A stretch of 43,703 nucleotides of DNA from a virus (taxonomy: Duplodnaviria > Caudoviricetes), in IMG/VR virus record IMGVR_UViG_3300029822_000021, positions 1 through 43,703 of that record; one strand, 5' to 3'. Each line of letters starts with the position of its first letter. Position 1 is the first letter of the stretch. Under the pieces are notes generated by a model. That model was not told where the DNA came from and ran no database searches. It was given only the letters and a program-made list of their open reading frames with translations. The translations under genes and the position numbers were made by a program. Shown one piece after another: positions 1 to 43,703 of this stretch.

Positions 1-639
1 AGGAACGATTATGACGTCTCAAACTCACATTGTCGGTCTGGATGCGGGGAACAGCTCCGCGAAAATGGTAGTCTATTTAGAGGGAGGGGGAGAAAAGCCG
101 CTGGAAGTGCTGGTCCCGAACGTATCAGCCAGGGGCGAAGAATTGGATATTCCGCCAAAGGGACAGGACATCTGGGATCGTCTGCATCTTGAGATCCTTG
201 ACGCTGAAGAACCTTTCGACGGTGAACGGTTTGTCGGTTCGCTGGCAGCTCGTCAACTGGTCGATGTTGAACAGGACCGGCGCAGGAATAAAGCAGAATC
301 GGACAATATCAACTTGATCACACCGGCACTGCTGGCTGCCGTTTGTCAGCCGGGCGACAAGGTGGTCTTGGGGATCGGTTCGCCGTTTGCAGACTTTGCG
401 ATGCAGAAACCGCAGATCATCGAACGCCTACAGCGTGAATTCAAAGTGCGATTCGGTTCATACTCCACCAAGCCGGGTCAAGTGGTCGACTTCGAAGTCT
501 CTCACGTTTATCCTTATCCGCAGACGGCTGCCGGGTACGTCTCCCAGGCACTCGGTCGTCTCGGCAAAGAGCATCCGGAATGGGATCAGCAGGCCGTGCT
601 GGTGATCGATCTGGGGCTTGGTCAATCTGGTGTTGCATA
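1..639 (+). repeat. Left copy of imperfect 639-bp direct repeat (parM RBS and 5' part)
   Basis: Aligns without gaps to 43065-43703; 63 mismatches by manual count (~90%). Confidence 0.95.
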
Positions 640-1081
640 CCTGGATTGCGGGGAAACTATAAAATCCGGTTGTTTCTCTGTGGACGAACCAGCCTTTTTA
701 CGTGTGGCACAAGGTGTCCAGCGCTACATGAACACCGAACGTCAGCGTGACTTGACGGTGCCGGAAATTCTGATCGCCATCGAAGCAGGGCAATATCACA
801 TAAATGGCGAAAAGATCGATCTTACACCGGTGATCGCGCTGGAGACCGAGCAGCTGGCCAGTGGTCTGCGACGTCGCTGCGAAGAGCTCATCCCGGCCAA
901 GCTGCGCGACAAAGTGAGTACGCTGCTGCTTATCGGTGGTGGCGCTCTGACAGTCGGCCTCGCCGATCAGTTCGAGGCGGCTTTCCATCGCCCGGCAATT
1001 GTCGGGGATAATCCGCGCTACGCCAATGCAATCGGACTGGCGGAGCAAGCCCGGCTAAAATACCAGAAAGAGTTGAGGTAA
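11..1081 (+). CDS. parM: ParM/StbA-family actin-like ATPase
   Basis: Actin-fold motifs: VGLDAGNSSAK (phosphate 1), PQTAAG (connect 1), VIDLGLGQS (phosphate 2), LIGGGA (adenosine), YANAIG (connect 2); 356 aa. Confidence 0.88.
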   Translation: MTSQTHIVGLDAGNSSAKMVVYLEGGGEKPLEVLVPNVSARGEELDIPPKGQDIWDRLHLEILDAEEPFDGERFVGSLAARQLVDVEQDRRRNKAESDNINLITPALLAAVCQPGDKVVLGIGSPFADFAMQKPQIIERLQREFKVRFGSYSTKPGQVVDFEVSHVYPYPQTAAGYVSQALGRLGKEHPEWDQQAVLVIDLGLGQSGVAYLDCGETIKSGCFSVDEPAFLRVAQGVQRYMNTERQRDLTVPEILIAIEAGQYHINGEKIDLTPVIALETEQLASGLRRRCEELIPAKLRDKVSTLLLIGGGALTVGLADQFEAAFHRPAIVGDNPRYANAIGLAEQARLKYQKELR

Positions 1082-1453
1082 ATGGCGGCGCGTGGTAGGG
1101 GCGAACGAATATCAGCATACATTGGTGATAAGACGCCTGAAGAACGCGCGTTTTGGGACGCAGCGGACGAGTTCCGCTTTCCCGCAGAACATGAGCGCGC
1201 CGGTAAAGTGCATTGGGCAGCGTTCATGCAATACCTCGCCGGGTTGGTACTCGTCGATCGGGAGCGCCAGAGCCGAGCGCAACCTAAGGCGGAAGACGTG
1301 CAAGCCGAACTCGCAGAGCTGCGACGCGAAGTTGACAGCATCAAGCAGATGGTTAGTCGCGGAGAGCTGACGCCCAGGACGGCGACCAGCGAAGTGAAAA
1401 ATGAAAATGCCCTGGCGAAAAAAGCTGCTCGCCTGGCAGAAGAGGATTGGTAA
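1082..1453 (+). CDS. Putative ParR-like DNA-binding adaptor
   Basis: Directly abuts parM; N-terminal basic beta-strand (RISAYI, RHH-like), central coiled coil, C-terminal amphipathic helix ending in W. Assigned mainly from position. Confidence 0.6.
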   Translation: MAARGRGERISAYIGDKTPEERAFWDAADEFRFPAEHERAGKVHWAAFMQYLAGLVLVDRERQSRAQPKAEDVQAELAELRREVDSIKQMVSRGELTPRTATSEVKNENALAKKAARLAEEDW

Positions 1454-1474
1454 CGTCGATCGTTATAATTTTGT

Positions 1475-3019
1475 TTACGCCGTAGTACGGTGACGATAGT
1501 ACTCAATATTGATTGTGACCTTTGTCTGGTACGGTTCGCCTCCACCAGCAAAGGTCACAATCGTGTTTATATCGATTGTGCTTTCATAAACAGTAACCCT
1601 TTTCACATAAGCCTGGATGATGCGTTTTTGCTCATCTGGGCTTTTGTCTTTTAGATTAGCATCCTTTTGCAGGTAGGCGCGAATCATCGCTTCAGTCGGT
1701 GCGTGGGTCTGAGCCTGCAATTTAGCTTCCTCCAATTTTATAATAAGGTTGGCCTTTTTGGCTTCCAGCTCGTCCATTCTGGTTTTCATGGACTCATGAA
1801 ACAGGCCAGCAGCAATTGCGTTCACGACATTGTTTATTTCAACCTGCACGCCTGAAAGCTGATCGGTAAACAGCTTTATGGCCCTATTTATTTCTGCGCC
1901 TTGTGAAGCGGCGTATTCGGTTATTTTTGCTGCCAGCTGCTCGGTAGCCGTTGGGGAAAATACATTTTCCTCAAGATACTCTATCACGGCGTTTTCTACC
2001 ATGTTTTTATTAATGGCCTTCATGTCGCATTCTTTTGTTCTCTTTCTTGTTGAGCATTCATAGCTGGCGTAAAGAGTTTTATTCCGACCGGCGAATTTCC
2101 TGGTACCTGTCATAGCCCCATCGCATTTGCCACAGAAAATTAGTCCAGACAACAGATAAAGCTCTTTTGCCGAATTAGAGCCTTTCTTATTACTTTTCAT
2201 GCGCTCTTGCACTACCCTCCAAGTTTGATCATCTATTATTCGTGGCATGCCGCCCTCAATCCTGATTATCGCATCGTCATCTTTGCTTTGGTGGTGGTTG
2301 CGTTTACCGTTAATTTTGGGTTTGGAGCGGTTAAAAATATATACTCCCCGGTATTTTTCATTCCTGAGTATATCATGGATGCTGTTATTGCCGAACGGGC
2401 GATTTGTTCGCGTCTTGAGCCCTTCACGCTTTAGCCTGGCGATAATATCGCTGTAGCCCTGCCCAGCAGCATACATCTCGAATATGATTTGTACAGTCTT
2501 CGCATTTGATACATCAATGACATATGTTTTGTCCTCGGCTAAAGCATAGCCTAGTGGGGGAACTCCACCGGTATGTTTGCACTGATAGGCGGTTTCCCTC
2601 ATCCCCTTCATAACTTCGCGCGACAGGTTCCGGCTATAATACTCGGCCATGCCCTCAAGAACGCTTTCCATGATAATTGATTCAGGACTGTCGTCCAAAT
2701 TTTCCAAAACAGATATTAAGCGCACGCCACACCTTTTCAGGTGCCGCTTGTAATAAGCGCTGTCATAGCGATCACGGCTGAAGCGATCCAATTTGTGCAC
2801 AATTACGGCTTGAAATACGCCGGTTTCCGCATCGCGCATCATTTCAAGGAACTGCGGCCGTTGATCAGTGGTCGCTGACTTCGCTTCATCAGGATAAACT
2901 TTAATTACCGCAAGTCCTTCCCGCGCGGCGTATTCCCTTATGGCGCGGATCTGGGCATCAATGGATTCTTCGCGCTGATTATCGCTGCTGTATCTCACAT
3001 ATGCGGCTGCTTTTTGCAT
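1475..3019 (-). CDS. int: Large serine recombinase (phage integrase)
   Basis: YVRYSS catalytic motif, resolvase domain (KLDRFSRD), recombinase domain (PPLGY...ILRNEKYRG), zinc ribbon (LLSGLIFCGKC...YECS...C), coiled coil; 514 aa. Confidence 0.95.
   Translation of the reverse strand: MQKAAAYVRYSSDNQREESIDAQIRAIREYAAREGLAVIKVYPDEAKSATTDQRPQFLEMMRDAETGVFQAVIVHKLDRFSRDRYDSAYYKRHLKRCGVRLISVLENLDDSPESIIMESVLEGMAEYYSRNLSREVMKGMRETAYQCKHTGGVPPLGYALAEDKTYVIDVSNAKTVQIIFEMYAAGQGYSDIIARLKREGLKTRTNRPFGNNSIHDILRNEKYRGVYIFNRSKPKINGKRNHHQSKDDDAIIRIEGGMPRIIDDQTWRVVQERMKSNKKGSNSAKELYLLSGLIFCGKCDGAMTGTRKFAGRNKTLYASYECSTRKRTKECDMKAINKNMVENAVIEYLEENVFSPTATEQLAAKITEYAASQGAEINRAIKLFTDQLSGVQVEINNVVNAIAAGLFHESMKTRMDELEAKKANLIIKLEEAKLQAQTHAPTEAMIRAYLQKDANLKDKSPDEQKRIIQAYVKRVTVYESTIDINTIVTFAGGGEPYQTKVTINIEYYRHRTTA
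1511..1562. other. Putative attP of the serine integrase, inside the int coding sequence
   Basis: Perfect 14-bp inverted repeat GATTGTGACCTTTG (1511-1524) / CAAAGGTCACAATC (1549-1562), plus inner CTGGT/ACCAG. The central dinucleotide TC (1536-1537) begins TCGCCTCCACCA, which resembles a tmRNA/tRNA-Ala 3' end. Confidence 0.8.
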
Positions 3020-3090: not shown

Positions 3091-3729
3091 TTAATTTTCG
3101 CTTTCACTGGCGGCTTCGGCCTCGGCATCTCGAAGCGATGCCATGTTTCCGGAGGCAAATAGTCTCCAGCTTTTTATTTTTCGTCTGATCCAGACGATGA
3201 GCATAATCCAAGGGATTGTGATGGCCACGCATACGTATTGTAGCATCAAGGTTGTTTTGGTGCGCACAGCTTCGTTTTCGTAAGTCCCCACGGAGGCTGC
3301 TGAGGCAAGAAACGACAAGGCAAGCCAGGCAATTATGAGCAGGATAATCAAAAAGACTTTTATGATACGCAGCGCACTAATTTGATTTGGCATAATGCCG
3401 GATAGTCGATATTCCTCCACTTCAATGTAAATTTTAGGCGAAGCCAAAGCCGCAACGCGCGCCTTAGTTTGTTCCTTGCTTTCCTTACGCAGTATATAGT
3501 AAGACAAAAGTGCCTGATAAAAAAGTGCGACTGGGGGTTTGCTTGGGCCGTAGACAAGATTTAATCCGGCGAATACCAGGAGTGCGTTAAAAATCGATAA
3601 ACCCCAAGCGTGAACGCCCCTAATAGATTCTTTAATGATGTAAAATCTAGTTACTAAAGGGAGTACCAAAGCCGCAGCCCAAAACGCGGCCGTCTGCAGT
3701 AAGTAGCTAAGCAAATATGTATCGCTCAT
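3091..3729 (-). CDS. Multi-pass membrane protein (moron; possible superinfection exclusion or defence)
   Basis: About five hydrophobic segments; AT-richer; GAGGGGGG RBS-like sequence upstream of MSDTYL; sits in the immunity operon. Confidence 0.7.
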   Translation of the reverse strand: MSDTYLLSYLLQTAAFWAAALVLPLVTRFYIIKESIRGVHAWGLSIFNALLVFAGLNLVYGPSKPPVALFYQALLSYYILRKESKEQTKARVAALASPKIYIEVEEYRLSGIMPNQISALRIIKVFLIILLIIAWLALSFLASAASVGTYENEAVRTKTTLMLQYVCVAITIPWIMLIVWIRRKIKSWRLFASGNMASLRDAEAEAASESEN

Positions 3730-3745
3730 ACCTCTGTTTCCCCCC

Positions 3746-4351
3746 TCAATTGTATTGGCTACAATATTCGCGGAGTACTTTTGCGTCAATCTCGACTTTA
3801 GCAGGGACGTAGCTTTTTTCATCTTTATATAGCTCGTTAACGACAGCTTGCATGAAATCGCGGACTGCCTTTGGCGATTCAGTTCTTAAATCTATAAAAG
3901 AATTGTTATAAAGCGCCCGCTTATAGTGAAGCAGAAGCTTGATCCTGATAAGATATACCTCGCTATATGTTTCAATCGGGCGATCAGCACCCAACAATTC
4001 CCGCAGATGGAAAACGCAAATATCATCAAGCACTTTAAAGCGCTCATAAAGTATACAAGCTTTCCGAAACCCGTGGTCGTATTCGAAGCCTTCTCTTACC
4101 GTAAGGCGCACAAGCCTTCCGTCTACACCAATTTCATTCATAGCAAGCTGAAGTGCCACGTTATTTTCTGGCCACGAAGATGCATTCAAGTATGATAAAG
4201 CGATCGGTAAGCGCATTTTGCTGGCAACAGCTATGTACGTCAACGTCAGTTTCATGTCTTTATATCTTTCTATTCTTGGACGCAACCAAAACACATAGAA
4301 CCCAAGAAGCAACGGCAGTATTACTGCAATCGTTATTTCTAGCCCGGACAT
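3746..4351 (-). CDS. Hypothetical protein with N-terminal membrane anchor (moron)
   Basis: N-terminal TM (IAVILPLLLGFYVFW); start overlaps the upstream stop; AT-rich. Confidence 0.7.
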   Translation of the reverse strand: MSGLEITIAVILPLLLGFYVFWLRPRIERYKDMKLTLTYIAVASKMRLPIALSYLNASSWPENNVALQLAMNEIGVDGRLVRLTVREGFEYDHGFRKACILYERFKVLDDICVFHLRELLGADRPIETYSEVYLIRIKLLLHYKRALYNNSFIDLRTESPKAVRDFMQAVVNELYKDEKSYVPAKVEIDAKVLREYCSQYN

Positions 4352-5257: not shown

Positions 5258-5363
5258 ATGACTACATGGTATATTCATTATAACACGATATACGGAGTTG
5301 GTATATAAATTATACCAAAATACTATAATGGTATTGACAGATACCAAATCGGTATGAGATAAT
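5258..5363. promoter_or_regulatory. Genetic switch: ATACC-N5-GGTAT operators and rightward sigma-A promoter
   Basis: Operator-like 15-mers at 5258, 5290, 5320 and 5341 (ATACCAAATCGGTAT, perfect). TTGACA at 5334-5339 and TG-N-GATAAT ending at 5363 flank the perfect site. Confidence 0.75.
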
Positions 5364-5402
5364 GGGGGCAAATGAGAGGTATCCACTTACGGAGGGATTG
5401 AA

Positions 5403-5609
5403 ATGGTCGCTGTTGATTTGGCGAAGATACGTGAACTGCGAAGGCAAAAGGGCATCCGGCAACGGGAAATGGCTAGGTTTCTTGGCTATAAGACTCAAAC
5501 CGGTTATAGCTATCTTGAAGCCGGGAAATACCCGATGCGGGTTGAACAGCTTGCGACAATTGCCCAAAAGTTAGAAGTACCTATTGATTCTCTTTTTTTA
5601 CCTCAATAA
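5403..5609 (+). CDS. Cro-like XRE HTH regulator
   Basis: KIRELRRQKGIRQREMARFLGY...YSYLEAGK; GGAGGG RBS; divergent from the repressor. Confidence 0.88.
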   Translation: MVAVDLAKIRELRRQKGIRQREMARFLGYKTQTGYSYLEAGKYPMRVEQLATIAQKLEVPIDSLFLPQ

Positions 5610-5623
5610 TACCAAAACGGTAT
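5609..5623. promoter_or_regulatory. Additional operator downstream of cro
   Basis: ATACCAAAACGGTAT, one mismatch to the site at 5341. Confidence 0.65.
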
Positions 5624-10872: not shown

Positions 10873-11883
10873 ATGGCGTGGCTGGAATTGCACCAAACGC
10901 TTTGGACACATAGAAAGACGCTGCAAATGGCTGCTGTTCTAAACATACCGCCTATTTATGCTGCCGCTCATATGGCTCATCTGTGGTGCTGGGCGCTGGA
11001 CAATGCCGAAAACGGAGATTTAAGTGGACTCGATCCGTCAGTCATTGCGGTCGCTGCAGGATGGACAGGAGAGCCAGACACGTTTGTGCAGGCTGCGCTG
11101 GCGGTCGGATACTTCGAAAAAGCAGATGATGGCGGGATTACGATCCACGATTGGCACGACTATGCCGGTCGGTTAATGGATGATCGTGCTGCAGAACGCG
11201 AGCGGTCGCGCCGCCGAAGAGAAGAGGCTAAAAAGAAAAAGACCAGCGGTCGACCGGTGGTTGACCAGCGGTCGACCGGCGACACCGTACCCTACCGTAC
11301 CGTACACAACCAAGATCTAAGATCATCAGCAGCAACCACAATAGATCCTACCGTCCCAGCTGCCGTCGAAGCGGCTGCGGCGGCTGAGGGTGAAACGTCA
11401 AAGCCGAACGAAGCGGCAGCCAGACACGCCGCACTAAACCGGATCGAGGGTGTCTTTGCCCAGTTCACTGGTCGGCTGATTCCCAGCCCAAAAGACATGG
11501 AGGACATGCGGGAAGCTCTGCGCCTCTGCCGTGGGGATGCAGAATTCGTGGTAAAAGCGATGGGTGCCGTCTCGAACGCTTATAAGCCACGCTTCCAGGG
11601 GGATAAGATTCGTACATTCTCATATTTCCTGCCAGCGATTCAGGAGGCGGCGGCACTGCGCAATGCCAGGGCGGCACCCATGAAACCATATACATCTGGC
11701 GAGACAAGTGAGCAGCCGTCGATGACAGCGGAGGAACAGGCGCGACTGGCTGCGATGACAGACGAAATTCTTTCCGCACTGCCACCGGAATTGCTGGAGG
11801 TAATGGACCAGGCGGAAGAAGGAGGCGAGCGTCATGAGCGAGACGACCCCAATGGCCACAGCCCTGCAAAACGTACTACCTGA
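10873..11883 (+). CDS. Phage replication initiator / replisome organizer
   Basis: MAWLELHQTL..HRKT...LWCWALDNAENGDL...IHDWHDYAGRL..R..ERER N-terminal domain; internal iteron-like repeats. Confidence 0.8.
   Translation: MAWLELHQTLWTHRKTLQMAAVLNIPPIYAAAHMAHLWCWALDNAENGDLSGLDPSVIAVAAGWTGEPDTFVQAALAVGYFEKADDGGITIHDWHDYAGRLMDDRAAERERSRRRREEAKKKKTSGRPVVDQRSTGDTVPYRTVHNQDLRSSAATTIDPTVPAAVEAAAAAEGETSKPNEAAARHAALNRIEGVFAQFTGRLIPSPKDMEDMREALRLCRGDAEFVVKAMGAVSNAYKPRFQGDKIRTFSYFLPAIQEAAALRNARAAPMKPYTSGETSEQPSMTAEEQARLAAMTDEILSALPPELLEVMDQAEEGGERHERDDPNGHSPAKRTT
11230..11302. repeat. Putative replication origin iterons inside the initiator gene
   Basis: A-tract, then GACCAGCGGTCGACCGG twice (11241-11257, 11263-11279; 22-bp period), then ACCGTAC/ACCCTAC microrepeats. 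Confidence 0.6.
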
Positions 11884-28198: not shown

Positions 28199-30318
28199 AA
28201 GTACCAACTTATCAAAGACAAGTGGGCGCGAACCTGCCGCAACCGGCGCAGCCGTCTCCGGAGGCATCCGGTGTGGGCGTGGCCCAAGCGGCGGGGGGTC
28301 TGGGGTCCACTGCTCAGAATGTCGGCCTGATGCTGGCGCAGCACGGTATCGAGATGCAAGAACGCGAGGATGCCAGGCAGACCCAGGAGGCCGAAACCGC
28401 TTTTCGCAAAGCCTTGGATGATCTGCAACACAATCAACGAAACGGCCTGCTTAATCGCCAGTTGAGCGATGCAGTTGGCATCACGATTGATTTTGATAAA
28501 CAGGCCGAGGAACTGCGCAAGCAGTACCTGGATACGCTGCCCGGAAAGACGCAGAAGGAGCAATTTGGCCTGGCTTCGGACTCGCACATTCAGGCCGCAC
28601 GCAGTGCGGTACTGCGTTATGAAACCGATCAAATACGTAAGGGCGAAGATACTGCCTACGCCAATGCGCTGGCCGCCGACTTTGCGGACGTGGCGCGCGA
28701 CCCATCGCAGGAGACACTAGTGCGCAAGATTGCTGACGCCACCAGCCGGATTAATACCTACGGCGCAATGCGCGGCTGGACACCGGAAATGACCGAGGCA
28801 CAAGCGCTGAAGGTGTCCGGGCAAATGGCATTCGCGGCGATCACGCAGCAGCTAACTAGTAATAATATCGCGGCTGCACAGTCGATTTACGACCAGCTCT
28901 CTGGGGCGATCAAGGCCTATTCGCTAGAAAAAGATCTGCAATTACGGGAGCAGTTAAAGAAAGCGGATTTGAACCAAGCGCAGACAACCTTGAATTTGCT
29001 AACGTCGAAGGCAGCGGCCATTCAAAGTGATGCAGATCTCGGCAAGCTCATCGCCGATGGATTGAACGTCATTGAAGCACAAAACAAATACGGGTTCACC
29101 GACGACGCCAAGGTTGCTATGCGTCAATCCTTCGTTGGCGGGGTGGTTACTAACCGGGTCATGACCGCGTTGAATGTCGAAAAGGATCCGGAAAAGGCGC
29201 AGAAGATACTGGATGGACACATCAATGATATGGATGCTCCCACGTGGGCAAAGCTGCAGGCACAAATCAGCGAAGCAGGCCAATACATAGAATACGAGCG
29301 TATGTGGGACACCGATTTATCGTTGCTACTGCTCTCTGACGGCACTCCGGACGAAAACGCTATATATGCCAAGTTGGAAGCAACCTATAACCTGCAAGGC
29401 GAACAGCTGGTTCGGGCGCGCAGTTATGTTTCGCAGAAAGTGTCCGCCGCTGCAGGGGCGATGAACGCGCAGCGCAATGCCACCTGGAGTACATTTTTAG
29501 ACGCGGTGGATGCTGTCATAATCAAAGGCGGAACTAAAGAGCAAGCCATGGCCGTATGGCGGGACACAAAGTTCCCGCGTGAACATGACCGCCTGGAAGG
29601 CCGCGATTATATTGATGGCCGTTTTAAGCCTGCTGAGTTTGCAGCCAAAACAGATCTAGGCGTATGGAGTGGATTGTACAGTATGGCCGTAAATGGCACC
29701 TGCACATTGACTGATTTGCAGGCGGCCGCCAGGCAGGGCGTGCTTTCGGACGCGGACTATAAGTCGCTATTTAAGATGATCGTCGACTCCGGCGATACGA
29801 AGAAAAACGAGGAACAGAAGCGCATAGTAGACTACATCGGCAGCCTTGCCCGAACGAAGTTTGCAGGTGATACCACCAAGCAGACCGAATTTCGGGCGTT
29901 TTTTGAGTACTCCACTAAAGATATGTCTTTTATTGAGGCGCAAGCATTCATCCAGAATAACAAAGACGCCTGGAAGAGTCATTTTGAGACGACCGAGAAA
30001 CTGGGCAAAGAAGCAGCAAAACTCTATAGTATTTTTGACAAAACAAAAGCGGATGCCGTCATTGACGGCCTGCGCGTGGAATTCGGGTCTACGGTTACCG
30101 TCGATAACTTAATGGCTTTCGAAACTGCGATTGGTGGCTACACCAACGAGAATCAAAACGCCATCCTCAATCTATACCGACTGAAAATCCCCATTACCAG
30201 CGCCACCGTGCAGGCACTGATATCAATCTATCCTACCGGCCTCGTACCCAAAGGTACTGGAGCCGCAGGACCCAGCGCGGAATTTTGGGAGGCGATCACA
30301 CGTGCCGCAGGATATTGA
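28195..30318 (+). CDS. Internal virion (ejection) protein, gp15-like
   Basis: MKVPTYQRQV start, long alpha-helical; between gp14-like and giant genes. Confidence 0.7.
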   Translation: MKVPTYQRQVGANLPQPAQPSPEASGVGVAQAAGGLGSTAQNVGLMLAQHGIEMQEREDARQTQEAETAFRKALDDLQHNQRNGLLNRQLSDAVGITIDFDKQAEELRKQYLDTLPGKTQKEQFGLASDSHIQAARSAVLRYETDQIRKGEDTAYANALAADFADVARDPSQETLVRKIADATSRINTYGAMRGWTPEMTEAQALKVSGQMAFAAITQQLTSNNIAAAQSIYDQLSGAIKAYSLEKDLQLREQLKKADLNQAQTTLNLLTSKAAAIQSDADLGKLIADGLNVIEAQNKYGFTDDAKVAMRQSFVGGVVTNRVMTALNVEKDPEKAQKILDGHINDMDAPTWAKLQAQISEAGQYIEYERMWDTDLSLLLLSDGTPDENAIYAKLEATYNLQGEQLVRARSYVSQKVSAAAGAMNAQRNATWSTFLDAVDAVIIKGGTKEQAMAVWRDTKFPREHDRLEGRDYIDGRFKPAEFAAKTDLGVWSGLYSMAVNGTCTLTDLQAAARQGVLSDADYKSLFKMIVDSGDTKKNEEQKRIVDYIGSLARTKFAGDTTKQTEFRAFFEYSTKDMSFIEAQAFIQNNKDAWKSHFETTEKLGKEAAKLYSIFDKTKADAVIDGLRVEFGSTVTVDNLMAFETAIGGYTNENQNAILNLYRLKIPITSATVQALISIYPTGLVPKGTGAAGPSAEFWEAITRAAGY

Positions 30319-33300
30319 TCTGAGTTATCTGCCAATCGAACTACAGCAACGCGTGCGAAACGCGTTTTATACTGATCCGGCCTCCCGCCTTGACGAAATC
30401 TTCCGTGCTTCGGCAGGCAAAGACCCTGCTAATGTGGCGCGCGCCATTGAGATCGCGTCTCAGCTGGATGTTACACCGGACGCGGTCATGGCCGAAAAGC
30501 TGACATCGGGTGATATCACCGCAGCGCCACCGAAGGCGTATTGGAAATGGCTACACGAGTATCGACCAATCACGACCGACTTTATTAGTGACCCGTACCG
30601 GATGACAGCTGTGCGCGACATCTTGGATGATCTTGATCGCAGCGAAAGTTGGGGAGCACAGCGCAAACGCGAGTTGCGGCTGCATAGCCTGACGGTACGT
30701 CAATCAGAGTTAGAGTGGGAGCGGATGATGTCCGCCTTGATTAGCGGCCAGATGCCGCAGTTGTATAACGGTGAACTGTCCGCTATCGAGCAAGAATTAG
30801 CGCAACTGTCAGCTGAGGTCGATGAAGGCTTTTGGCTGAACGTTATGCAGCAGCCAGCTCAATGGGCTTTCATGGCGAAACATGGCGCTACTGGTGCGGC
30901 GATAGGCGGAACCATAGGTGGAGTGGGAAGTGGCGTCGCTGCAATTTTGGCTGGTAATGCTGGACCACAAGCATTGATCCCAGAGGAAGTCGTTACGGTT
31001 CCTACCGCAGTGGTAGGTGGCGCAAAAGTCGGAGCCAAGATAGGCGGTAAGCTGGGCGCAGCCAAAGCCATGGTGATGCTAGAAGGTGGATCGGCATTCC
31101 GCGAACTATCGCAAATGCGCGATGACAACGGCGATCCTATTGACCCGCGCTTAGCGGCGGCTGGGGCATTGGCAGTCGGGCTGATCAATGGCGGGATGGA
31201 ATATCTCAGCATGTCGACGTTTCTAAAATTACTAACGGTTGTTCCTGGTGCTAAACAAGTACTGTCTGTTATCAGCGAGGCGAAGTTGACCGAACTCGCG
31301 AAGCAAGCCGGAAAGAACGCCAGCAAGAGCGTGATCTTAGGAGTTGTTAAAAACTATCTGGTTTCGCTGATTACAGAAGCTGGTACGGAAACAGGACAAG
31401 AGGCATCACCTCAAATAGTCGCCAACGTCCTGAAATCAATTTCCAGGCAGCCGTTTACTGCGCCGGAGACACGCGCAGCCACCGCCAAAGAGATCTGGCA
31501 GCGCTCCACCGGCGTGATTGTCCCGACAATCCAGTCGACCGCCTTTTGGGGTGCAATTACAGGCGGGATTGGGCTGGGGATCAACGCAGTTCAAAATACT
31601 CTGCAGGTGCAGCAGGCCGAGCGCAACGCGCAAACATACCGCGCTGCCGGACAGGTTGCGGCGCAGTCCCAGCTGCTCGACCGCACATCGACCGGCTATC
31701 GCGATCATATGGCCGAAGTCCTGAAGGGTAGTCCGCTCGAAACGGTATATGTAGATCCAGAACCGTTTGTAACATTGCTGCAGTCGGCGGCTGAAGAGCA
31801 GGGCCAGCAATCGCAGGAAGTGCTGCGTCTTGCGGCTCGCGAACTGGGTGTTAGTGACACGGAAATGCAACAGGCGCTGGAGAGCGGTACGCCGATCGCA
31901 GTGCCTTACGCGGCCTGGCTGCAGCAGACCGCCAAGACTCCAGCCTATAATGCACTTGAAGAGCATGTACGGTTCAGCCCTGATGGCCTTACCCTGGCAC
32001 AGGCCAAGAGCGAGGAACAACGCATTGATCAAATAACAGAGCAGGAACAGCTACGAGCGCAAGAGCTGATTGCCGAATCAGAGCAGAATCAGGCCGGTTA
32101 TCAGCTGGTGTATGACGATATCCGCAGCAAGTTGCAGGCGGCCGGACGACCGGAAGGGCAGTTCACGGCACGCCGCTGGGATGCGTACATCGACAAGAGC
32201 GCCAGGCTATGGGCGGCGCACGCTGTCACGGAAGCGGCGCGGCGTGGGATTACCGTTGAACAGTGGTATCAAGGGACTAACCGCCCGGAGATTCGCCGGG
32301 GGCAGGTGGACACGCAGGGCCTCGTACTGAACCAGCAGGCCCTCCATGCCTCGCTGGCTGATTTCGATCGGTTTTCGCTGGAGAAAATCGGCACCGGAGT
32401 TGGCCAGAACCTGAAGGGGTGGGGGCTGAACTTCACCACCTCAGTGGCGCTACGAGACTACTATCGGCAAATGTTTGAACAGTACCGCGCGGAGGATGGC
32501 CAAAAGGCGATTGGCTACCGGGTTAATATTGCGGAAGACAGCGATCTGATGAACTGGGAGACCAGCCTGGGCGAACAGCCTGCCAAAGTCCAGCAAGCCG
32601 TCGAGAAGGTTTTGGAGGCGCATCCAGAGTTAGACTCCCTGGGCAATATTAACGCCAGGGAGTTTTATTATGCGCTGGCGGAGACCTTGGGCGGAACAAA
32701 AGAGGCGTCCTTGGCACTACGCAATGCCGGAATACCGGGTCACAGCTACGTGATGGACGCTCATGAGTATGGTAAGGTGAAGAACTTTGTGATTTATGAT
32801 GAGCAGTCCATAGAGATTAAGGGGAAGGAGTACTTTCAGAGCGGGGTCAATGAGCAGTCTGCAAGCCTTCCGCAAAATGAAGCAGAAAACATTGAACGTG
32901 GTACCGCAGCAATGGAAGAGGTTATCGAAAACCATACCGACTTTCTGAACGCCATGTACCGTCAGGAGGTAGGCGGGATATCATTTTATTGGGGGGAGCC
33001 GGGGCAGGCACCGGAATTTAAAAAGGGTAGCGGCATATCGAAGATCATAGCCAAATGCACTTTCGAAGGTCTGGACGGAGAAGCGGTGGCTAGAAAGATG
33101 GTCGAGGTACTCGCTAAAGGAGAACTGGGGGAGGTTTACGGCCCACCCGAAGGGCAAAGGGTTAACATTGGTTATGACGGTCACACGGCGGTGCTCTCGT
33201 TGTATCGCGATAAAAATCTGCAAACGTGGCTGTTGACCGGGTGGAAAAACGATACAGAGGTTTCCGTTGATTCCGGAGAGGGTGACGGCTCTGCCGGACC

Positions 33301-36300
33301 TACGCTCTCCGAGCCTATGCGTACTCGTCCCGGAGAGGGAGCGGAAACCTCTGTTGATGATATTATACCAAAACCGGGCACATTATTCCACCGTATACCA
33401 CAGACACAAACTGAAGCCTTCAAAGCGTGGTTTGGTGACAGCCAGGTTGTCGACGAAAACGGGCAACCGTTGGTGGTCTATCACGGCACGCAGCGGCCTG
33501 ACCGCATTGGAGACCGTTTCAGGAAAGACCGGGCAACCTCCGGGCCGATGTCCTTCTTTACAGATAATGCTGAAATCGCCAGCAACTATGCGACTGGCAA
33601 GCAGGACACTTCCTTGACTCGCGAAGACACCAGTTATGAAAACTGGTACCAGGTCAAGGTTAGGGGCAAAGATAATCCCGTCAACATCGTGCAGGCTTGG
33701 CACTCATTGTCAGCGGAAGAACGGCGTCGCATCAGCGAATTGGCACCCCGCATTACTGAGAATGATGATGGCGATATTTACCTGGCCGGTCCGGAACACA
33801 AGACAGGGTTGGGCGGGTACACCTGGCAGATCAAAGAGGCCAAGGGCAATGCGCTGGCAGCATTAGTCGATGCATGGCTTAACGATGGAACCCTGTACAA
33901 TAACGAGGATAAATTCGCGCAAGTGCTGGATCTCGCAGGGTTAAAAGACTATCAGTATGATCCGCCGAACGCATCTTACCCGGGTGTCTATCCGGTGTAT
34001 TTGGCGATCCGGAACCCGTTCGACACAGCTAATATTCCTGATGATGTTGTGCAAGCGCTCGAAAAGCATTCTCAGACAGTACAGTTTGAGGATGGCCAGG
34101 GCGGCGCGGACATGTGGGACAAAGAAAGCCGCAGGCCGGAAGACTGGATACAAATGCTTCGCGACGATATTGCAGGCGGCACGACACGAGCGTGGACCAG
34201 TATTCCTGATTGGGTCACTGACACGCTGAAAGAACTGGGATATGACGGTATCAAGGATGCCGGTGGTAAGCTAGGCGGCTTAGGCCACACAGTATGGATT
34301 CCGTTCGAGGAAACGCAAGTCAAGAGCGCCACCGGCAATCGTGGTACATTTGGCCCTAATAATCCGAGTATCCTGCTGCAAGGCGACAAAAACACCCCGC
34401 GTGGCGCGGTGCACATCGGACAGTCCAAGAGCGTTATTGCTCTTCTGCAAGCCGCCGACCCCAGCACGTTCCTCCATGAGTCGGCGCACCTGTGGCTGAA
34501 TGATATGTTTGAATACGTTCGTTCGGGACAGGCCAACGAATCCTATCTGGCAGATTGGAAGACCTTGTCCGGTTGGCTGCAAGTCGCGGACACCCAGGCC
34601 GAGTTGACCACCGAGCAGCAAGAGAAATTTAGCAGAGGCTTTGAAACGTACCTCATGGAAGGCAAGGCACCTTCGCGCGGTTTACGCAAGGTTTTTGCAG
34701 CCTTGAAGCAATGGATGATCCGGGTGTACCGGTCGGTTGTACCACTGAATGCACCGATGTCTGACGCCGTGCGCGGCGTCATGGATCGGATGCTGGCCAC
34801 CGAGGAGGAGATCCGCCAGGCTGAGGCAGCCGAAGCAGCGGATCAGCAGCTGATCGGCGAGGCAGATGTCGCGCCGGAAGTACTGGCGACACTGGACGAC
34901 TATCGCGCCCGAGCACACGAGCAAGCTACCGCCCAGCTGCTTAAAAGCCGCATGGAGGAAATGACAGCGCAGGCCATTGAGAAGATGGAAGATGAATGGA
35001 TTCAAACCAAAGATGCGGTCAGCGAGGAAATGGCGGTTGAACCGCTGTTTGCCGCGCAACAGGATCTGCTCTCTTTTATGGGTGCAGATACTGACTTGCG
35101 CAGTCTGGCGTCCATGTATCGCCGGGACACACTCCATACAAAGGTGCGAGAGCGCTTTGAGCGCATTGCTGAAAACTATGGCCTCAGCGGCGACGAACTG
35201 GCCTGCAAAATTCTCGACGGCCAGACCATCCGCGAAGAACTGCAGCGGCGTACCGAGCAGCGCATGGAAGCGCAGCATCCGGAATTGCTGCCGGAGAACC
35301 TGCGCGCAACCGCCCAGGCGGCCATCCACAATGAGGCACGCAGCGAACTGATCGCACTGGAAAACGCTATCCTACAGGAAATGGTCTCGAAGGCGCAGGC
35401 GGGTGCGATCAACCGGCGCGCTGCGCTCCAACGCGCACAAGTCATGTCACGCGCAGCGTGGAGTAAGGCGCGGGAGATTTTGAGCCGGACAAACTATAAA
35501 GAAGCCACCGACGCCACCAAGTATTTTGCAGCTGAGCGCGATGCGGCTGTCAAGGCAGCCTTGGCCAAACAACGTGGCGATCTGACCAGGGCACAGAAAT
35601 ATGCTGAGCAACGCATGGTGGCGCACGCTTTGGCACGCGAAGCGCTGAAGAACAAAGTGGAAGTCGACAAGATTTTCCGCTACATTCAGCCGCTGACCAA
35701 GCATGGCCGTAGCCTGATGAATATGCCGAAGGAATTTGTCTTTCAGATTGACGCCTTACTAGGACGCTTTGGCTTTGGGCCAGGGCCGGAGATCGCGCCA
35801 GGTGATATTGTGGAAAGCCTGTCAGACTTCGCAGCGCGCATGAAGGACGAATATCACGAGTTGCCGTTTAGTAGTACAATGTTCGCGGAGGCTTACCGCA
35901 AACCCTATCAGGAACTGACCTTGGGCGAACTACGCGACCTGCACCAGGCCTTAAAATCATTGGCACGAATGGGCCGCAATTATAACAGCTTCCTGAGCCT
36001 GTTCAAAGGGGCCGATATCAGAATCGCGGGAGCTGAGACGCGCGCCAGTATCGCGGAGCAGGTTGGCAACCCGCGTGCACATGAGAAGTATATCGGCAGC
36101 GGCAAAGGCAGCGAAAAGGCGCTCAGCATCTCCGACGAAATAGCCGGATGGCTGGTCAAGCCGGAGTTTTACGCACGCTTCCTGGACGGTGATCAGGACG
36201 GACCATTCCAGAATTATTTCCTACGTCCGCTGAAACAGGCACGCGATGCCGAACAGGTCATGCGAGAAAAGATTATGCACGATCTATCGCAGCTGTTCAA

Positions 36301-38092
36301 GCCTTTTTACACCGTAGCCGAGATGCGCGAGATGACAAAGAAAAAGAGCGAAAAGTACATCAAAGAGATCGGTCGTAACCTGACGCGGGAGAATATCATT
36401 CTGTTCGCCTTGAACCAGGGTAACGAGATGAACAAGCAGCGCGCCAAGGACGGTTTCGCAACGCCGCTAAGCGACAAAACGGGCCTGACTGATGCCCAGG
36501 TGGATGCGATCCTCAGCTATATGACCGAAAAGGATTGGCAACTGGCGCAGAGTGTCTGGGATTACGTTGACACGTACTGGGATGAAATCAAGAAGCTGGA
36601 GGAAGAGGTCACCGGGGTAACACCGGAAAAAGTGGAGGCGACGCCTGTGGTTACGCCATACGGAACCCTGCGCGGCGGCTATTTTCCGATTGCCTATGAT
36701 CCCGGGAAATCATCAGCGGCAGCGACGAACGAAGCGCAGTTGAACGCACTCTACAAAGAAATGCCAGCTGCCAGAGCTGCGACGCGTCAAGGCCACACAA
36801 AGCAGCGAGCGCAGCACGTTGAGCGACCAATCCTGCTTACCTGGGGCGTCTTGACACGCCATTTGAACAACGTCGCACACGACCTGACGCACAGGAGAGC
36901 CATTATCGATGCGAACAGATTCCTGAAAAACCGCGATGTCCGGACTGCCGTCGAAAGTGCCGTCGGTCAGGCGGGGTACCGTTCATTGGAAAATGCGCTG
37001 AAGGCCATCGCCGCCGATCAGGGCGATAGCCTGACACCTCTTGATAAGGTTGTTCGTTGGAGTCGCACTCATACAACAATGTTCGCCCTGGGCGGCAATC
37101 TACGCCTGGCTCTGCTGCAGCTGTCGGGAGTTCACCAATCTGCCTGGGAGATTGGCGCGATTCCAACCATGCGCGGCATTGGGAACTTTATCGCTAATCC
37201 GCAGCAGACTTGGAAAACGGTACACGAAAAATCAACTTTCATGGCAAACCGTGGTCAAACGTTCGACCGCGATGTCTATGATTATTTCAACAAGATGTTC
37301 AAAAAAGACCGGAGCAAGGCAGACTTCGCTTTCTGCCTGGCCGGGTTTGCCGACCAGTTATGGACGGTGCCAATGTGGATGGAATCTTACCGCATGGCAC
37401 TGGCCGAAGGATTGACCGAACAGGATGCCATTGCACGAGCAGACGGACATGTGGAACGCGCTGCCGGATCCGGTACCGTGCTGGGGCAATCAGCTGCACA
37501 GCGTGGGCCGGAGATTCAAAAACTAATGACGATGTTCTACAGTTACGGCAATCAGCTGGCCAATTTATACTGGCTGAACGCTAAGCGCGCTGGCGTGGAG
37601 ATTCGCCAGGGACAAACCGGAGCGGCCACAAAACGTATCGCGGCCATGGTTGCCTATGGTTGGATCTTACCAGGGATTTTCGAATGGGGCATCCGTGAAA
37701 TTTTGAGACAAAAACGTGGCGATGAGGAACCGGAAGACGTTTTTAAGCGCCTGGTGGCAGCGTTGCCCTCCGGCTTACTCCAGACCATTCCACTGTTGCG
37801 CGATATCGCATCGGCATTCATCAATCGGCAGATGGGCATTTACGACGAATTCAGCGTTACACCGGTTGAAGATTCGATCAATGACGCGCTCGATACCATC
37901 GACCAGGCGAAAAAAGCGCTTGTTGGCGAGGGTGATCCAATGAAGGCGGTTGAATCTGTTGCAGAAACTGGCGCTTATAGCGCGGGTATCCCGAAACAGA
38001 TTGTCACCTGGGTGTTCAACATCCTCGACTGGATCACCGGCGAGGGTGCGCCAGCTGTGCAGGATCTGTTCACACGCCGACCTAAACGGTAA
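30302..38092 (+). CDS. Giant polyvalent internal virion/ejection protein (gp16 position)
   Basis: 2596 aa. LPD23-like (FDRFSLEKIGTG..GWGL.F), barnase/EndoU/RelE-like (I.FYWG..G...G.G..KI...TWLLTGW), ART-PolyVal (FKAWFGDS.VVDENGQPLVVYHGT...GYDGI), zincin FLHESAH, conserved C-terminal helical region. Confidence 0.8.
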   Translation: MPQDIDLSYLPIELQQRVRNAFYTDPASRLDEIFRASAGKDPANVARAIEIASQLDVTPDAVMAEKLTSGDITAAPPKAYWKWLHEYRPITTDFISDPYRMTAVRDILDDLDRSESWGAQRKRELRLHSLTVRQSELEWERMMSALISGQMPQLYNGELSAIEQELAQLSAEVDEGFWLNVMQQPAQWAFMAKHGATGAAIGGTIGGVGSGVAAILAGNAGPQALIPEEVVTVPTAVVGGAKVGAKIGGKLGAAKAMVMLEGGSAFRELSQMRDDNGDPIDPRLAAAGALAVGLINGGMEYLSMSTFLKLLTVVPGAKQVLSVISEAKLTELAKQAGKNASKSVILGVVKNYLVSLITEAGTETGQEASPQIVANVLKSISRQPFTAPETRAATAKEIWQRSTGVIVPTIQSTAFWGAITGGIGLGINAVQNTLQVQQAERNAQTYRAAGQVAAQSQLLDRTSTGYRDHMAEVLKGSPLETVYVDPEPFVTLLQSAAEEQGQQSQEVLRLAARELGVSDTEMQQALESGTPIAVPYAAWLQQTAKTPAYNALEEHVRFSPDGLTLAQAKSEEQRIDQITEQEQLRAQELIAESEQNQAGYQLVYDDIRSKLQAAGRPEGQFTARRWDAYIDKSARLWAAHAVTEAARRGITVEQWYQGTNRPEIRRGQVDTQGLVLNQQALHASLADFDRFSLEKIGTGVGQNLKGWGLNFTTSVALRDYYRQMFEQYRAEDGQKAIGYRVNIAEDSDLMNWETSLGEQPAKVQQAVEKVLEAHPELDSLGNINAREFYYALAETLGGTKEASLALRNAGIPGHSYVMDAHEYGKVKNFVIYDEQSIEIKGKEYFQSGVNEQSASLPQNEAENIERGTAAMEEVIENHTDFLNAMYRQEVGGISFYWGEPGQAPEFKKGSGISKIIAKCTFEGLDGEAVARKMVEVLAKGELGEVYGPPEGQRVNIGYDGHTAVLSLYRDKNLQTWLLTGWKNDTEVSVDSGEGDGSAGPTLSEPMRTRPGEGAETSVDDIIPKPGTLFHRIPQTQTEAFKAWFGDSQVVDENGQPLVVYHGTQRPDRIGDRFRKDRATSGPMSFFTDNAEIASNYATGKQDTSLTREDTSYENWYQVKVRGKDNPVNIVQAWHSLSAEERRRISELAPRITENDDGDIYLAGPEHKTGLGGYTWQIKEAKGNALAALVDAWLNDGTLYNNEDKFAQVLDLAGLKDYQYDPPNASYPGVYPVYLAIRNPFDTANIPDDVVQALEKHSQTVQFEDGQGGADMWDKESRRPEDWIQMLRDDIAGGTTRAWTSIPDWVTDTLKELGYDGIKDAGGKLGGLGHTVWIPFEETQVKSATGNRGTFGPNNPSILLQGDKNTPRGAVHIGQSKSVIALLQAADPSTFLHESAHLWLNDMFEYVRSGQANESYLADWKTLSGWLQVADTQAELTTEQQEKFSRGFETYLMEGKAPSRGLRKVFAALKQWMIRVYRSVVPLNAPMSDAVRGVMDRMLATEEEIRQAEAAEAADQQLIGEADVAPEVLATLDDYRARAHEQATAQLLKSRMEEMTAQAIEKMEDEWIQTKDAVSEEMAVEPLFAAQQDLLSFMGADTDLRSLASMYRRDTLHTKVRERFERIAENYGLSGDELACKILDGQTIREELQRRTEQRMEAQHPELLPENLRATAQAAIHNEARSELIALENAILQEMVSKAQAGAINRRAALQRAQVMSRAAWSKAREILSRTNYKEATDATKYFAAERDAAVKAALAKQRGDLTRAQKYAEQRMVAHALAREALKNKVEVDKIFRYIQPLTKHGRSLMNMPKEFVFQIDALLGRFGFGPGPEIAPGDIVESLSDFAARMKDEYHELPFSSTMFAEAYRKPYQELTLGELRDLHQALKSLARMGRNYNSFLSLFKGADIRIAGAETRASIAEQVGNPRAHEKYIGSGKGSEKALSISDEIAGWLVKPEFYARFLDGDQDGPFQNYFLRPLKQARDAEQVMREKIMHDLSQLFKPFYTVAEMREMTKKKSEKYIKEIGRNLTRENIILFALNQGNEMNKQRAKDGFATPLSDKTGLTDAQVDAILSYMTEKDWQLAQSVWDYVDTYWDEIKKLEEEVTGVTPEKVEATPVVTPYGTLRGGYFPIAYDPGKSSAAATNEAQLNALYKEMPAARAATRQGHTKQRAQHVERPILLTWGVLTRHLNNVAHDLTHRRAIIDANRFLKNRDVRTAVESAVGQAGYRSLENALKAIAADQGDSLTPLDKVVRWSRTHTTMFALGGNLRLALLQLSGVHQSAWEIGAIPTMRGIGNFIANPQQTWKTVHEKSTFMANRGQTFDRDVYDYFNKMFKKDRSKADFAFCLAGFADQLWTVPMWMESYRMALAEGLTEQDAIARADGHVERAAGSGTVLGQSAAQRGPEIQKLMTMFYSYGNQLANLYWLNAKRAGVEIRQGQTGAATKRIAAMVAYGWILPGIFEWGIREILRQKRGDEEPEDVFKRLVAALPSGLLQTIPLLRDIASAFINRQMGIYDEFSVTPVEDSINDALDTIDQAKKALVGEGDPMKAVESVAETGAYSAGIPKQIVTWVFNILDWITGEGAPAVQDLFTRRPKR

Positions 38093-42759: not shown

Positions 42760-42942
42760 ATGCGTGAAAGAATAATGAACTCTCTTAAACCCAAAGTTTT
42801 CAATCTCATTGATAGGTCTGAGGATACGAAGAACATGCGGCGCGCCTTTGCATTGTTGATGGAAAAGCTTCATGAAAAGAACATACTCAGTACGGAGGAG
42901 ATCGAGCAAATGCTCGAAGATATCCAAAAAGACGATCACTAA
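42760..42942 (+). CDS. Small hypothetical protein (60 aa)
   Basis: AAGGGGG RBS; own terminator downstream. Confidence 0.6.
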   Translation: MRERIMNSLKPKVFNLIDRSEDTKNMRRAFALLMEKLHEKNILSTEEIEQMLEDIQKDDH

Positions 42943-42961: not shown

Positions 42962-42993
42962 AGCTCCGGGGAAACCCGGAGCTTTATTTTTTT
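42962..42993 (+). terminator. Intrinsic terminator
   Basis: AGCTCCGGG-GAAA-CCCGGAGCT followed by TTATTTTTTT. Confidence 0.85.
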
Positions 42994-43025: not shown

Positions 43026-43058
43026 TGTATGATAAAATGTAGTATAAAAAATCATACA
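43026..43058 (+). promoter_or_regulatory. parMR promoter with overlapping inverted-repeat operator
   Basis: TG-N-TAAAAT (43030-43038) overlapped by TGTATGAT (43026-43033) / ATCATACA (43051-43058). Confidence 0.55.
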
Positions 43059-43064
43059 AAAGGG

Positions 43065-43703
43065 AGGAACGATTATGGCGTCTCAAACTCACATTGTCGG
43101 TCTGGATGCGGGGAACAGCTCCGCGAAAATGGTAGTCTATTTGGAGGGAGGAGAAGGCAAACCGTTAGAGGTACTGGTGCCGAACGTCTCGGCCAGGGGC
43201 GAAGAACTGGATATTCCACCGAAAGGAGAGGACATCTGGGATCGGCTGCATCTTGAGATCCTCGAGGCTGAGGAACCTTTCGACGGTGAACGGTTTATCG
43301 GCTCACTGGCAGCGCGTCAGCTGGTCGATGTTGAGCAGGACCGGCGTAGAAATAAAGCGGCGTCGGACAATATCAACTTGATCACACCGGCGCTGCTGGC
43401 TGCCGTCTGTCAGCCAGGTGATAAGGTGGTCTTGGGGATCGGATCACCGTTTGCGGACTTTGCGACGCAGAAGCCGCAGATCATCGAACGCCTGCAACGG
43501 GAGTTCAAAGTGCGATTCGGTTCATACTCCACCAAGCCGGGACAGGTGGTCGACTTCGAAGTCTCTCACGTTTACCCATATCCGCAGACGGCTGCCGGTT
43601 ACGTCTCCCAGGCACTCGGTCGCCTCGGTAAAGAACATCCGGAATGGGATCAGCAGGCCGTGCTGGTAATTGATCTAGGCCTCGGACAATCTGGTGTAGC
43701 ATA
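43065..43703 (+). repeat. Right copy of imperfect 639-bp direct repeat
   Basis: About 90% identical to 1-639. Confidence 0.95.
43075..43703 (+). CDS. parM: Second ParM-like allele, truncated by the window end
   Basis: GGGAGG RBS, ATG at 43075, open frame MASQTHIVGLDAGNSSAK... to the window end; 8 aa differences from the copy at 11. Confidence 0.85.
   Translation, partial: MASQTHIVGLDAGNSSAKMVVYLEGGEGKPLEVLVPNVSARGEELDIPPKGEDIWDRLHLEILEAEEPFDGERFIGSLAARQLVDVEQDRRRNKAASDNINLITPALLAAVCQPGDKVVLGIGSPFADFATQKPQIIERLQREFKVRFGSYSTKPGQVVDFEVSHVYPYPQTAAGYVSQALGRLGKEHPEWDQQAVLVIDLGLGQSGVA

Follow-up and report, generated by a model that had tools for sequence, protein, structure and literature searches.

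Why should a phage that integrates into the chromosome of its host keep a partition motor of the plasmid type? This question is raised by the IMG/VR virus record IMGVR_UViG_3300029822_000021, one complete virus record of 43,703 bases, which was analysed over its whole length (hereafter the window). The source virus is a temperate phage of the short-tailed type from a fermentation pit, and it contains a cassette of two genes, an actin-like ATPase and a small partner, next to the phage attachment site (attP) and the integrase gene. In our study, we found that the arrangement is known already from other phages and mobile elements, and on the best reading the cassette works like AlpAC of the Corynebacterium glutamicum prophage CGP3 and SrpMRC of the SXT/R391 elements: as these do, an autoregulated actin/adaptor pair would probably act on the transient, non-integrated phage circle. 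Distinctive here are an ATPase clade with a Thr-to-Gln change, a lone palindrome and a position adjacent to the attachment (att) site under two integration systems.

The actin-like ATPase and its partner

The cassette was found to contain two open reading frames (ORFs).

11..1081, plus strand: actin-like ATPase (ParM/Alp fold), 356 amino acids (aa), allele A; intact ORF with Pfam and PHROG matches and a fold model
1082..1453, plus strand: putative adaptor, 123 aa; co-conserved ORF, ParR-type fold putative

The ATPase matched the Pfam family ALP_N (E 1.3e-8) and PHROG 691, annotated as 'partition protein' (E 5.8e-26). All five actin motifs, namely phosphate 1, connect 1, phosphate 2, adenosine and connect 2, were intact, with the residues D11/G13/K18, Q171, D200-x-G-x-G-Q205, GGG at 309-311 and N339-A-x-G, respectively. 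The closest solved relatives by sequence were pCBH ParM (E 1.4e-10) and Dh-cParM1 (E 1.3e-6), and the best matches in sequence and fold were pCBH ParM, Dh-cParM1, Ta0583 and Alp7A. In a Foldseek ranking of the ATPase model (predicted local distance difference test, pLDDT, 83.8), ranks 1-18 were ParM, Alp, Ta0583 and CorM entries and the first MreB appeared at rank 19; by this ranking the fold is nearer to ParM/Alp than to MreB or Hsp70. The top match among viral models in the fold search was gp506 of Bacillus phage G.

Near relatives of the ATPase were scarce: six clusters at ≥50% identity were found, and seven more full-length proteins near 30%. In a quick tree the 14 clade members formed one branch among 53 rows, with an approximate likelihood ratio support (SH-aLRT) of 99. 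The D11, G13, K18, Q171, G202, G204, G309, A340 and G342 residues were invariant in 14/14 members, and D200 was conserved in 13/14. Position 205, which aligns with the first Thr of the phosphate-2 loop of pCBH ParM, was Gln in all 14 members, whereas 125 of the 128 other hits contained Thr or Ser and none contained Gln. In MreB and Hsp70, hydrolysis involves the corresponding phosphate-2 Thr, and a slower filament resulting from the Thr-to-Gln change is a prediction only. The solved relatives pCBH ParM (6izr, 6ixw) and Dh-cParM1 (8x1i; PMC12270681) share with the ATPase the Gln in connect 1; they differ in their identity of only about 20%, in the Thr at phosphate 2 where Gln stands here, and in their plasmid or chromosomal setting. 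Chromosomal ParMs polymerise, and the word "phage" is absent from the text of that report (PMC12270681). By sequence, the ATPase appears to belong to a branch of the ParM/Alp family so far unstudied.

The partner gene starts at the base right after the ATPase stop codon. The N-terminus of its product is basic, and residues 9-15 alternate in a strand-like manner; two helices, a coiled coil at 70-92 and an amphipathic C-terminal helix ending in Trp were also recognised, and these features are conserved. Such an anatomy of basic N-terminus, strand, helices, coiled coil and C-terminal helix is typical of ParR-type adaptors. Five homologues of the partner were found, all five on contigs equal in size to those of ATPase homologues (43703, 40959, 1668, 5858 and 54499), and in the locus L002 the adjacency of the two genes was read directly. 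The C-terminal helix with its terminal Trp was invariant in 5/5 homologues, the helix being as conserved as the N-terminal part. The partner is thus a putative, co-conserved adaptor candidate. The original prediction of an intact actin-fold ATPase and adaptor held for the integrity of both ORFs and for the ATPase, which profile and structure searches (Pfam, PHROG, Foldseek) placed in ParM/Alp; the partner gave no significant match in Pfam, PDB sequence or fold searches, and its ParR-type fold is putative.

Genome form and the two alleles

Positions 1-639 and 43065-43703 were found to be two versions of one gene start, about 90% identical, with 63 of 639 bases different.

43075..43703, plus strand: allele B, ATPase 5' part of 209 codons, ended by the contig end; overlaps 11-639 in the circular genome

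The codon changes between the alleles were 52 synonymous vs 8 non-synonymous, and the ratio of non-synonymous to synonymous substitution rates (dN/dS) was 0.038 over the 209 codons; the ATPase gene is under strong purifying selection. In run X1, a single upstream contig splits into both alleles (depth 4.9 and 10), which then rejoin, and runs X2, X3 and X4 carry the end version. The locus L001, from another assembly, contained on one stretch the promoter region of the window (2 differences in 524 bases), the end version (0/629) and the shared 3' part, and the protein P0007 is the full-length product of this allele B form. The window was therefore read as circular DNA, 43,064 bp in size, in which the 5' part of the ATPase gene is present as two alleles. 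A linear genome with a terminal direct repeat was ruled out, as nearly all differences between the copies are synonymous and a single upstream contig branches into both. Since the genome is circular and the ends are two alleles, the promoter at the far end of the window belongs to the cassette.

The non-identical contig ends could also be taken for a sign of misassembly at the junction or in the cassette, or of a tandem array of prophages with the window as its middle part; a junction within such an array would look like attP. None of the listed contigs covers the entire 6.5-kb stretch. Against this stand the L001 locus, in which another assembly continues from the promoter through allele B into the shared 3' part, a 35,552-bp contig of X2 which passes through the cassette as far as 1547, and the forking and rejoining of both alleles in X1. 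An artefact or array is very improbable indeed.

Promoter, terminator and palindrome

The region upstream of the ATPase was found to contain the following features.

42962..42993, plus strand: intrinsic-terminator-like hairpin (42962-42983) with T run, dividing the cassette from the upstream genes
43028..43038, plus strand: extended -10 promoter element, the only perfect TRTGnTAWAAT in the window; ribosome-binding site at 43062-43067
43026..43058, no strand: inverted repeat of 8 bp (43026-43033/43051-43058), spacer 17 bp, which spans the promoter and the predicted start site; candidate operator and putative minimal centromere

The upstream terminator, the own promoter and the inverted repeat of the original prediction were thus all recovered. 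A sigma-70 scan missed the cassette promoter, which was found via the TRTGnTAWAAT extended -10 pattern; at least one perfect copy of this pattern occurred somewhere in 16/100 shuffles. An equally good inverted repeat was found in 4/2000 shuffles of the 73-bp intergenic stretch, and the half-site TGTATGAT occurred nowhere else in the genome. In P0008, a 91%-type allele with a mis-called N-terminus, the right arm is apparently kept and the spacer is one base shorter, as judged by back-translation, which is weak. The placement of the palindrome suggests an autorepressor operator. The sole tandem repeats in the window were at 11241-11281 and 32554-32582, in agreement with the earlier remark that no R1-like iteron centromere is visible; because an iteron array is absent, the cassette is not classed as R1-type ParMRC. 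No convincing terminator was found between the adaptor and attP, so that in the circle the cassette transcript would continue antisense into int.

Integration at the tmRNA gene

Downstream of the cassette, on the opposite strand, lies the integrase gene with the attachment site inside it.

1475..3019, minus strand: large serine integrase; the attP form has 514 aa, of which 496-514 are exchanged upon integration; from family scans and comparison with P0016
1511..1562, no strand: attP, with 14-bp perfect inverted arms 1511-1524/1549-1562 and centre 1536-1537, inside the last 20 codons of int

The integrase carries Resolvase, Recombinase and Zn-ribbon domains. The 14-bp perfect inverted repeat of attP has no counterpart of equal size elsewhere in the genome and was not matched in any of 2000 shuffles. 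Its 12-bp core (1536-1547) is the 3' end of transfer-messenger RNA (tmRNA) genes. The stop codons of the adaptor and int are 21 bp apart; the cassette had been described as convergent with int across attP, and it is convergent with the serine recombinase (3019-1475), but attP (1511-1562) is located inside the int ORF. A location of attP in the 21-bp gap was accordingly rejected.

The protein P0016 is identical with the window integrase through residue 495, followed by a different tail of 25 residues (attL form). Among 96 integrase loci retrieved, 72 were long enough for scoring: 35 of these contained a tmRNA gene facing the integrase, with its 3' end inside the ORF in 33, and the other 37 were without a tmRNA gene (attP forms, other targets or decay). 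L004, whose integrase is 76% identical, contained the tmRNA 3' end followed by the same right arm as the window. Contigs of X1 and X2 exit the phage exactly at 1547 into foreign DNA, with CACAATC kept in right-arm register, and of two X4 contigs one ends at 1547 and one begins at 1536. The attP site, attR and the attL form of the integrase are all present in public data. The phage integrates at ssrA, restores the tmRNA 3' end and exchanges the integrase tail; in the prophage, the cassette then stands next to attR as the final operon, with the integrase at the other end. The contig depths (in X2, 20.6 for the phage and 16.9 for the attR piece; in X1, 8-11 for the phage and 24.9 for the host flank) fit a mostly integrated, low-copy phage, depths being no copy numbers and not used as proof. 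The host-side flank gave no exact match in GTDB representatives, and the integrase relatives point to anaerobic Bacillota.

DsiB of Dehalococcoides is an ssrA-specific large serine integrase with its att site embedded in the 3' end of its gene (PMC3146451). As here, it is a large serine recombinase with an ssrA target and a C-terminus that is variable when integrated; DsiB occurs on small genomic islands with a second recombinase, DsiA, whereas here it is a complete Bacillota phage, with the attP form seen directly. An Islander paper had nevertheless stated that serine integrases were not known to target such genes (PMC4383910).

Some further observations concern the integrase family. The 19-residue attP-form tail (1475-1535) resembles the tail of the attP-form L009, whereas the tails of integrated forms vary and consist of antisense-tmRNA text; the enzyme may change its C-terminus upon integration. 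A 71% integrase relative (L007:3831-3906) lies at the 3' end of tRNA-Ala, not tmRNA, with the same right arm, and L075 likewise. An island at L070:6321-17132 (also in L095) contained a broken integrase relative, a relaxase-like gene, restriction-type genes, a 1016-aa ORF of no known kind and a conventional ParM/StbA.

Lysis-lysogeny switch and replication

The control and replication regions of the phage were found as follows.

5258..5623, no strand: lysis-lysogeny switch, six ATACC-N5-GGTAT operator-like sites between divergent helix-turn-helix genes, covering the rightward promoter 5334-5363
10873..11883, plus strand: replication initiator (PHROG 9474) in the rightward run of lytic genes; 11-bp iterons inside the gene at 11241-11281

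In its exact and one-mismatch copies the operator-like motif is confined to 5258-5623, and 19 matches occur in total at two mismatches. The motif was not found at the cassette promoter in a genome scan with up to two mismatches; because it is missing there, the cassette operon is predicted to be independent of the switch, and control of the cassette by the phage repressor was rejected.

The original prediction had offered two alternatives for the cassette, a dual integrated and plasmid lysogeny or a filament that positions phage DNA in lytic growth. In the first, the cassette would partition the phage as a plasmid of low copy number, which would last for many generations, a mode of life suggested for the Bacillus phages IEBH, B83 and Bp8p-C, in which a ParM-like motor and a small adaptor are present in plasmid prophages (PMC8026635, PMC6669507). 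Such pairs mark plasmid prophages in these papers, although the review cautions that the genes are no proof of plasmid life (PMC8026635, PMC6669507). The cassette promoter lies outside repressor control, the window is the attP-joined form, and no attL fork was listed among the contigs of X1 and X2, where attP-spanning contigs exist; attR and attL forms do exist, however. The only initiator with its iterons sits in the lytic run, downstream of the rightward promoter that the operator-like sites cover, and this position speaks against replication while the lysogen is repressed. The ORFs scanned included no dimer-resolving recombinase of the Xer, Cre or small-resolvase type, a role in which a host enzyme could serve. 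The Bacillus phages carry Xer-type recombinases or none (none is listed for IEBH and Bp8p-C), and B83 has a plasmid-type initiator on the lysogenic strand; the phage studied here differs in its tmRNA-specific serine integrase and lytic-operon initiator. Because the initiator and iterons are under the lytic switch, no Xer-type or small resolvase was seen in the scanned ORFs and integrated forms are seen, stable plasmid lysogeny is disfavoured and seems unlikely, whereas extrachromosomal action of the AlpAC kind fits. Since integration was observed and the initiator is under the lytic promoter, the cassette most likely serves the free-circle phase, after infection or excision.

Relatives and genomic context

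No locus of the ATPase clade was found in the viral contigs or GTDB representatives searched, and a metagenome scan yielded two short clade loci. In whole-genome searches only distant Alps were found, in 0/5, 15/250 (best E 2e-22; one additional genome was left unscored), 3/5, 0/28, 4/162 and 0/151 genomes of the sets searched. Of 11 distant Alps inspected, 10 showed the usual Thr motif and one gave no motif readout. GenBank phages contained only partial matches of 22-25%, and plasmids only ParM matches of 22-25%.

In L002 (53% ATPase and 40% adaptor identity), the contig extends for about 135 bp beyond the adaptor and stops within a tRNA-Lys gene, of which the 3' half is present, preceded by non-tRNA DNA; 55 of the 63 matches of this stretch in 106 loci fall in whole tRNA-Lys genes. 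No Rfam match was obtained in the window or L002, the tRNA half included. This end bears the signature of the att site of another integration system, the integrase of which lies outside the contig. In the sequence covered, the ATPase clade was absent from all 96 integrase loci, which is a weak test, as most show the int end only. The cassette is accessory. An amidase search gave no close phage.

The position of the cassette would also suit a lysogenic-conversion cargo which does not move its own DNA, for instance by destabilising competing plasmids or phages with related sites, or as a repurposed cytoskeleton. The cassette has its own promoter and upstream terminator in a cargo slot beside att, and no array for holding its own DNA. 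The partition cassette of P2-like phages occupies a defence hotspot (PMC9122126), genome-encoded ParMs may have other roles (PMC12270681), and a CorM-CorR filament is among the fold matches of the ATPase. On the other side, neither the ATPase nor the partner matched in PADLOC, so that a known defence system was rejected, and the nearly all synonymous allele differences are unlike an arms race. We regard the cargo reading as rather unlikely.

Several distant Alps were noted in other settings. In anaerobic Bacillota genomes, 5 of the 11 loci inspected had conjugative coupling proteins or topoisomerase III in the vicinity, and Moorella mulderi (G255), Desulfovirgula thermocuniculi (G256) and Desulforamulus putei (G257) contained 3-5 weak-to-moderate Alp matches each, several in a conjugative-element context. 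A distant actin-like gene is directly followed by a bactofilin gene (PF04519, E ~1e-12) in L209:4041-5841, L216:9119-10610, L217:9062-10544, L180 and L184; this pair, two cytoskeletal polymers in one apparent operon, was present in five genomes (5/28 Alp loci) with housekeeping-looking surroundings.

Other features of the genome

Family scans of the window identified T7/BPP-1-like head and short-tail genes (head-tail connector, GP7 capsid, Bbp16, nozzle and gp13/gp14-like), together with a lysis module, a repressor/metalloprotease/Cro switch and the large serine recombinase. A 2596-aa protein in the virion region (30302-38092) contained ART-PolyVal and PBECR1 domains; this polyvalent protein is probably injected along with the DNA. 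A 60-aa ORF at 42760-42942, between the lysis genes and the terminator, had no family match, a directionality factor being one guess. Two leftward ORFs at 3091-4351, between the metalloprotease and int (243 aa, membrane-like, and 201 aa), had no clear family and are possible exclusion or defence cargo.

Proposed action of the cassette

In the action that we consider probable, the partner would dimerise and bind the palindrome over its own promoter, by which the operon is repressed and the phage DNA marked, and its C-terminal helix would engage the ATPase filament. As the partner would repress its own promoter, the operon may stand by in lysogens; while integrated, the prophage would travel with the chromosome and leave the cassette without work. 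Once circles are present, after infection or excision, the filament would separate or position these few copies, either for inheritance by the daughter cells until re-integration or for placement in lytic replication. Polymerisation, DNA binding and transport are all inferred in this scheme.

The closest parallels are AlpAC and SrpMRC. AlpAC is the first ORF pair of CGP3, with int at the other border, and its loss halves the circular phage DNA; it binds 24 repeats in its own promoter and is induced early (PMC4446434). As here, an Alp with a co-transcribed adaptor and an integrase occupy opposite borders of an integrated prophage and flank attP in the circle, and the binding site lies in the operon promoter, a feature which is predicted in our phage (PMC4446434, PMC5539076). 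CGP3 differs in being cryptic, 187 kb in size, equipped with 24 alpS repeats and induced early; the present podovirus-type genome of 43 kb has one palindrome and a promoter outside the repressor operators. No AlpC match was obtained in the searches, and the likeness to CGP3 is one of layout. SrpMRC stabilises the excised R391 integrative and conjugative element (ICE) via a centromere of four 13-bp repeats (PMC4489591). It is likewise a type II pair on a normally integrated element, with an adaptor without homology to known ParR, and with a small centromere of inverted repeats upstream of the ATPase, and the system acts on the excised circle; the candidate palindrome here is also upstream, and action on the circle is presumed. 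SrpMRC belongs to an ICE with relaxase-driven replication and four 13-bp repeats, whereas the present element is a phage with two 8-bp half-sites. P2-like prophages, about a quarter of whose genomes contain a partition cassette, described as putative, along with an integrase (PMC9122126), and Bacillus plasmid prophages resemble our phage in being temperate phages with a ParM-like motor and a small adaptor.

Several points weigh against this circle-serving action. The partner gave no significant match to any ParR in Pfam, in PDB sequences or in two fold searches, its monomer model was weak (pLDDT 66) with the strand not modelled, and a language-model atlas hinted at ribbon-helix-helix clusters at 0.86-0.88, which is below the reliable range. 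There is one palindrome only, compared with several sites in the known systems (24 alpS, 4 srpC), and no iteron array was found upstream, downstream or elsewhere in the window, the origin iterons excepted. Inverted repeats of 8 bp like this one gave 34 seed hits genome-wide, 22 of them distinct, and because they recur about 22 times the position of the palindrome outweighs its size. The Thr-to-Gln change in phosphate 2 might alter hydrolysis, and the genomic context of the clade comes from two loci only. The attP-form L009, with 68% integrase identity, contained a holin and an amidase in place of the cassette and no Alp; the slot between the lysis genes and attP also gathers unrelated cargo.

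The lone palindrome bears on another explanation, in which the partner is an autorepressor or filament regulator only and the ATPase is a scaffold in lytic growth without DNA cargo. A single palindrome over the promoter looks like a plain operator, and unbound AlpA and Cb-cParR depolymerise their own filaments (PMC5539076, PMC12270681). The C-terminal helix of the partner is nevertheless conserved like its N-terminal part, as expected for a bridge between DNA and filament, and expression is predicted outside lytic control, so that a scaffold without DNA cargo appears quite improbable.

A bolder form of the circle-serving action may be put forward as a doubtful speculation. The Gln-for-Thr clade would form slow-hydrolysing filaments on lysogen standby. 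Until re-integration, these would hold one circle at the lone palindrome of the promoter, at 1.5 kb from attP, and tow it into the forespore or into both daughters, and the module would be swapped among unrelated integration systems (serine integrase and tmRNA here, tRNA-Lys in L002), always beside att. The papers searched, few of them from subscription journals, contained nothing on this ATPase clade, on a single-palindrome centromere or on Alp-driven entry of phage into spores.

Significance

With the mapped attP/attB pair, a serine integrase becomes available that targets the tmRNA gene in anaerobic Bacillota. The cassette bears on why integrating phages retain partition motors of the plasmid type, the effect of AlpAC in CGP3 being only two-fold. 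The unit is compact, with two genes and a single candidate site; it occurs as two natural alleles, and its active site carries a change found throughout the clade. As a simple test object, it could show whether an actin motor works from a single palindrome, and whether a transient circle is served.

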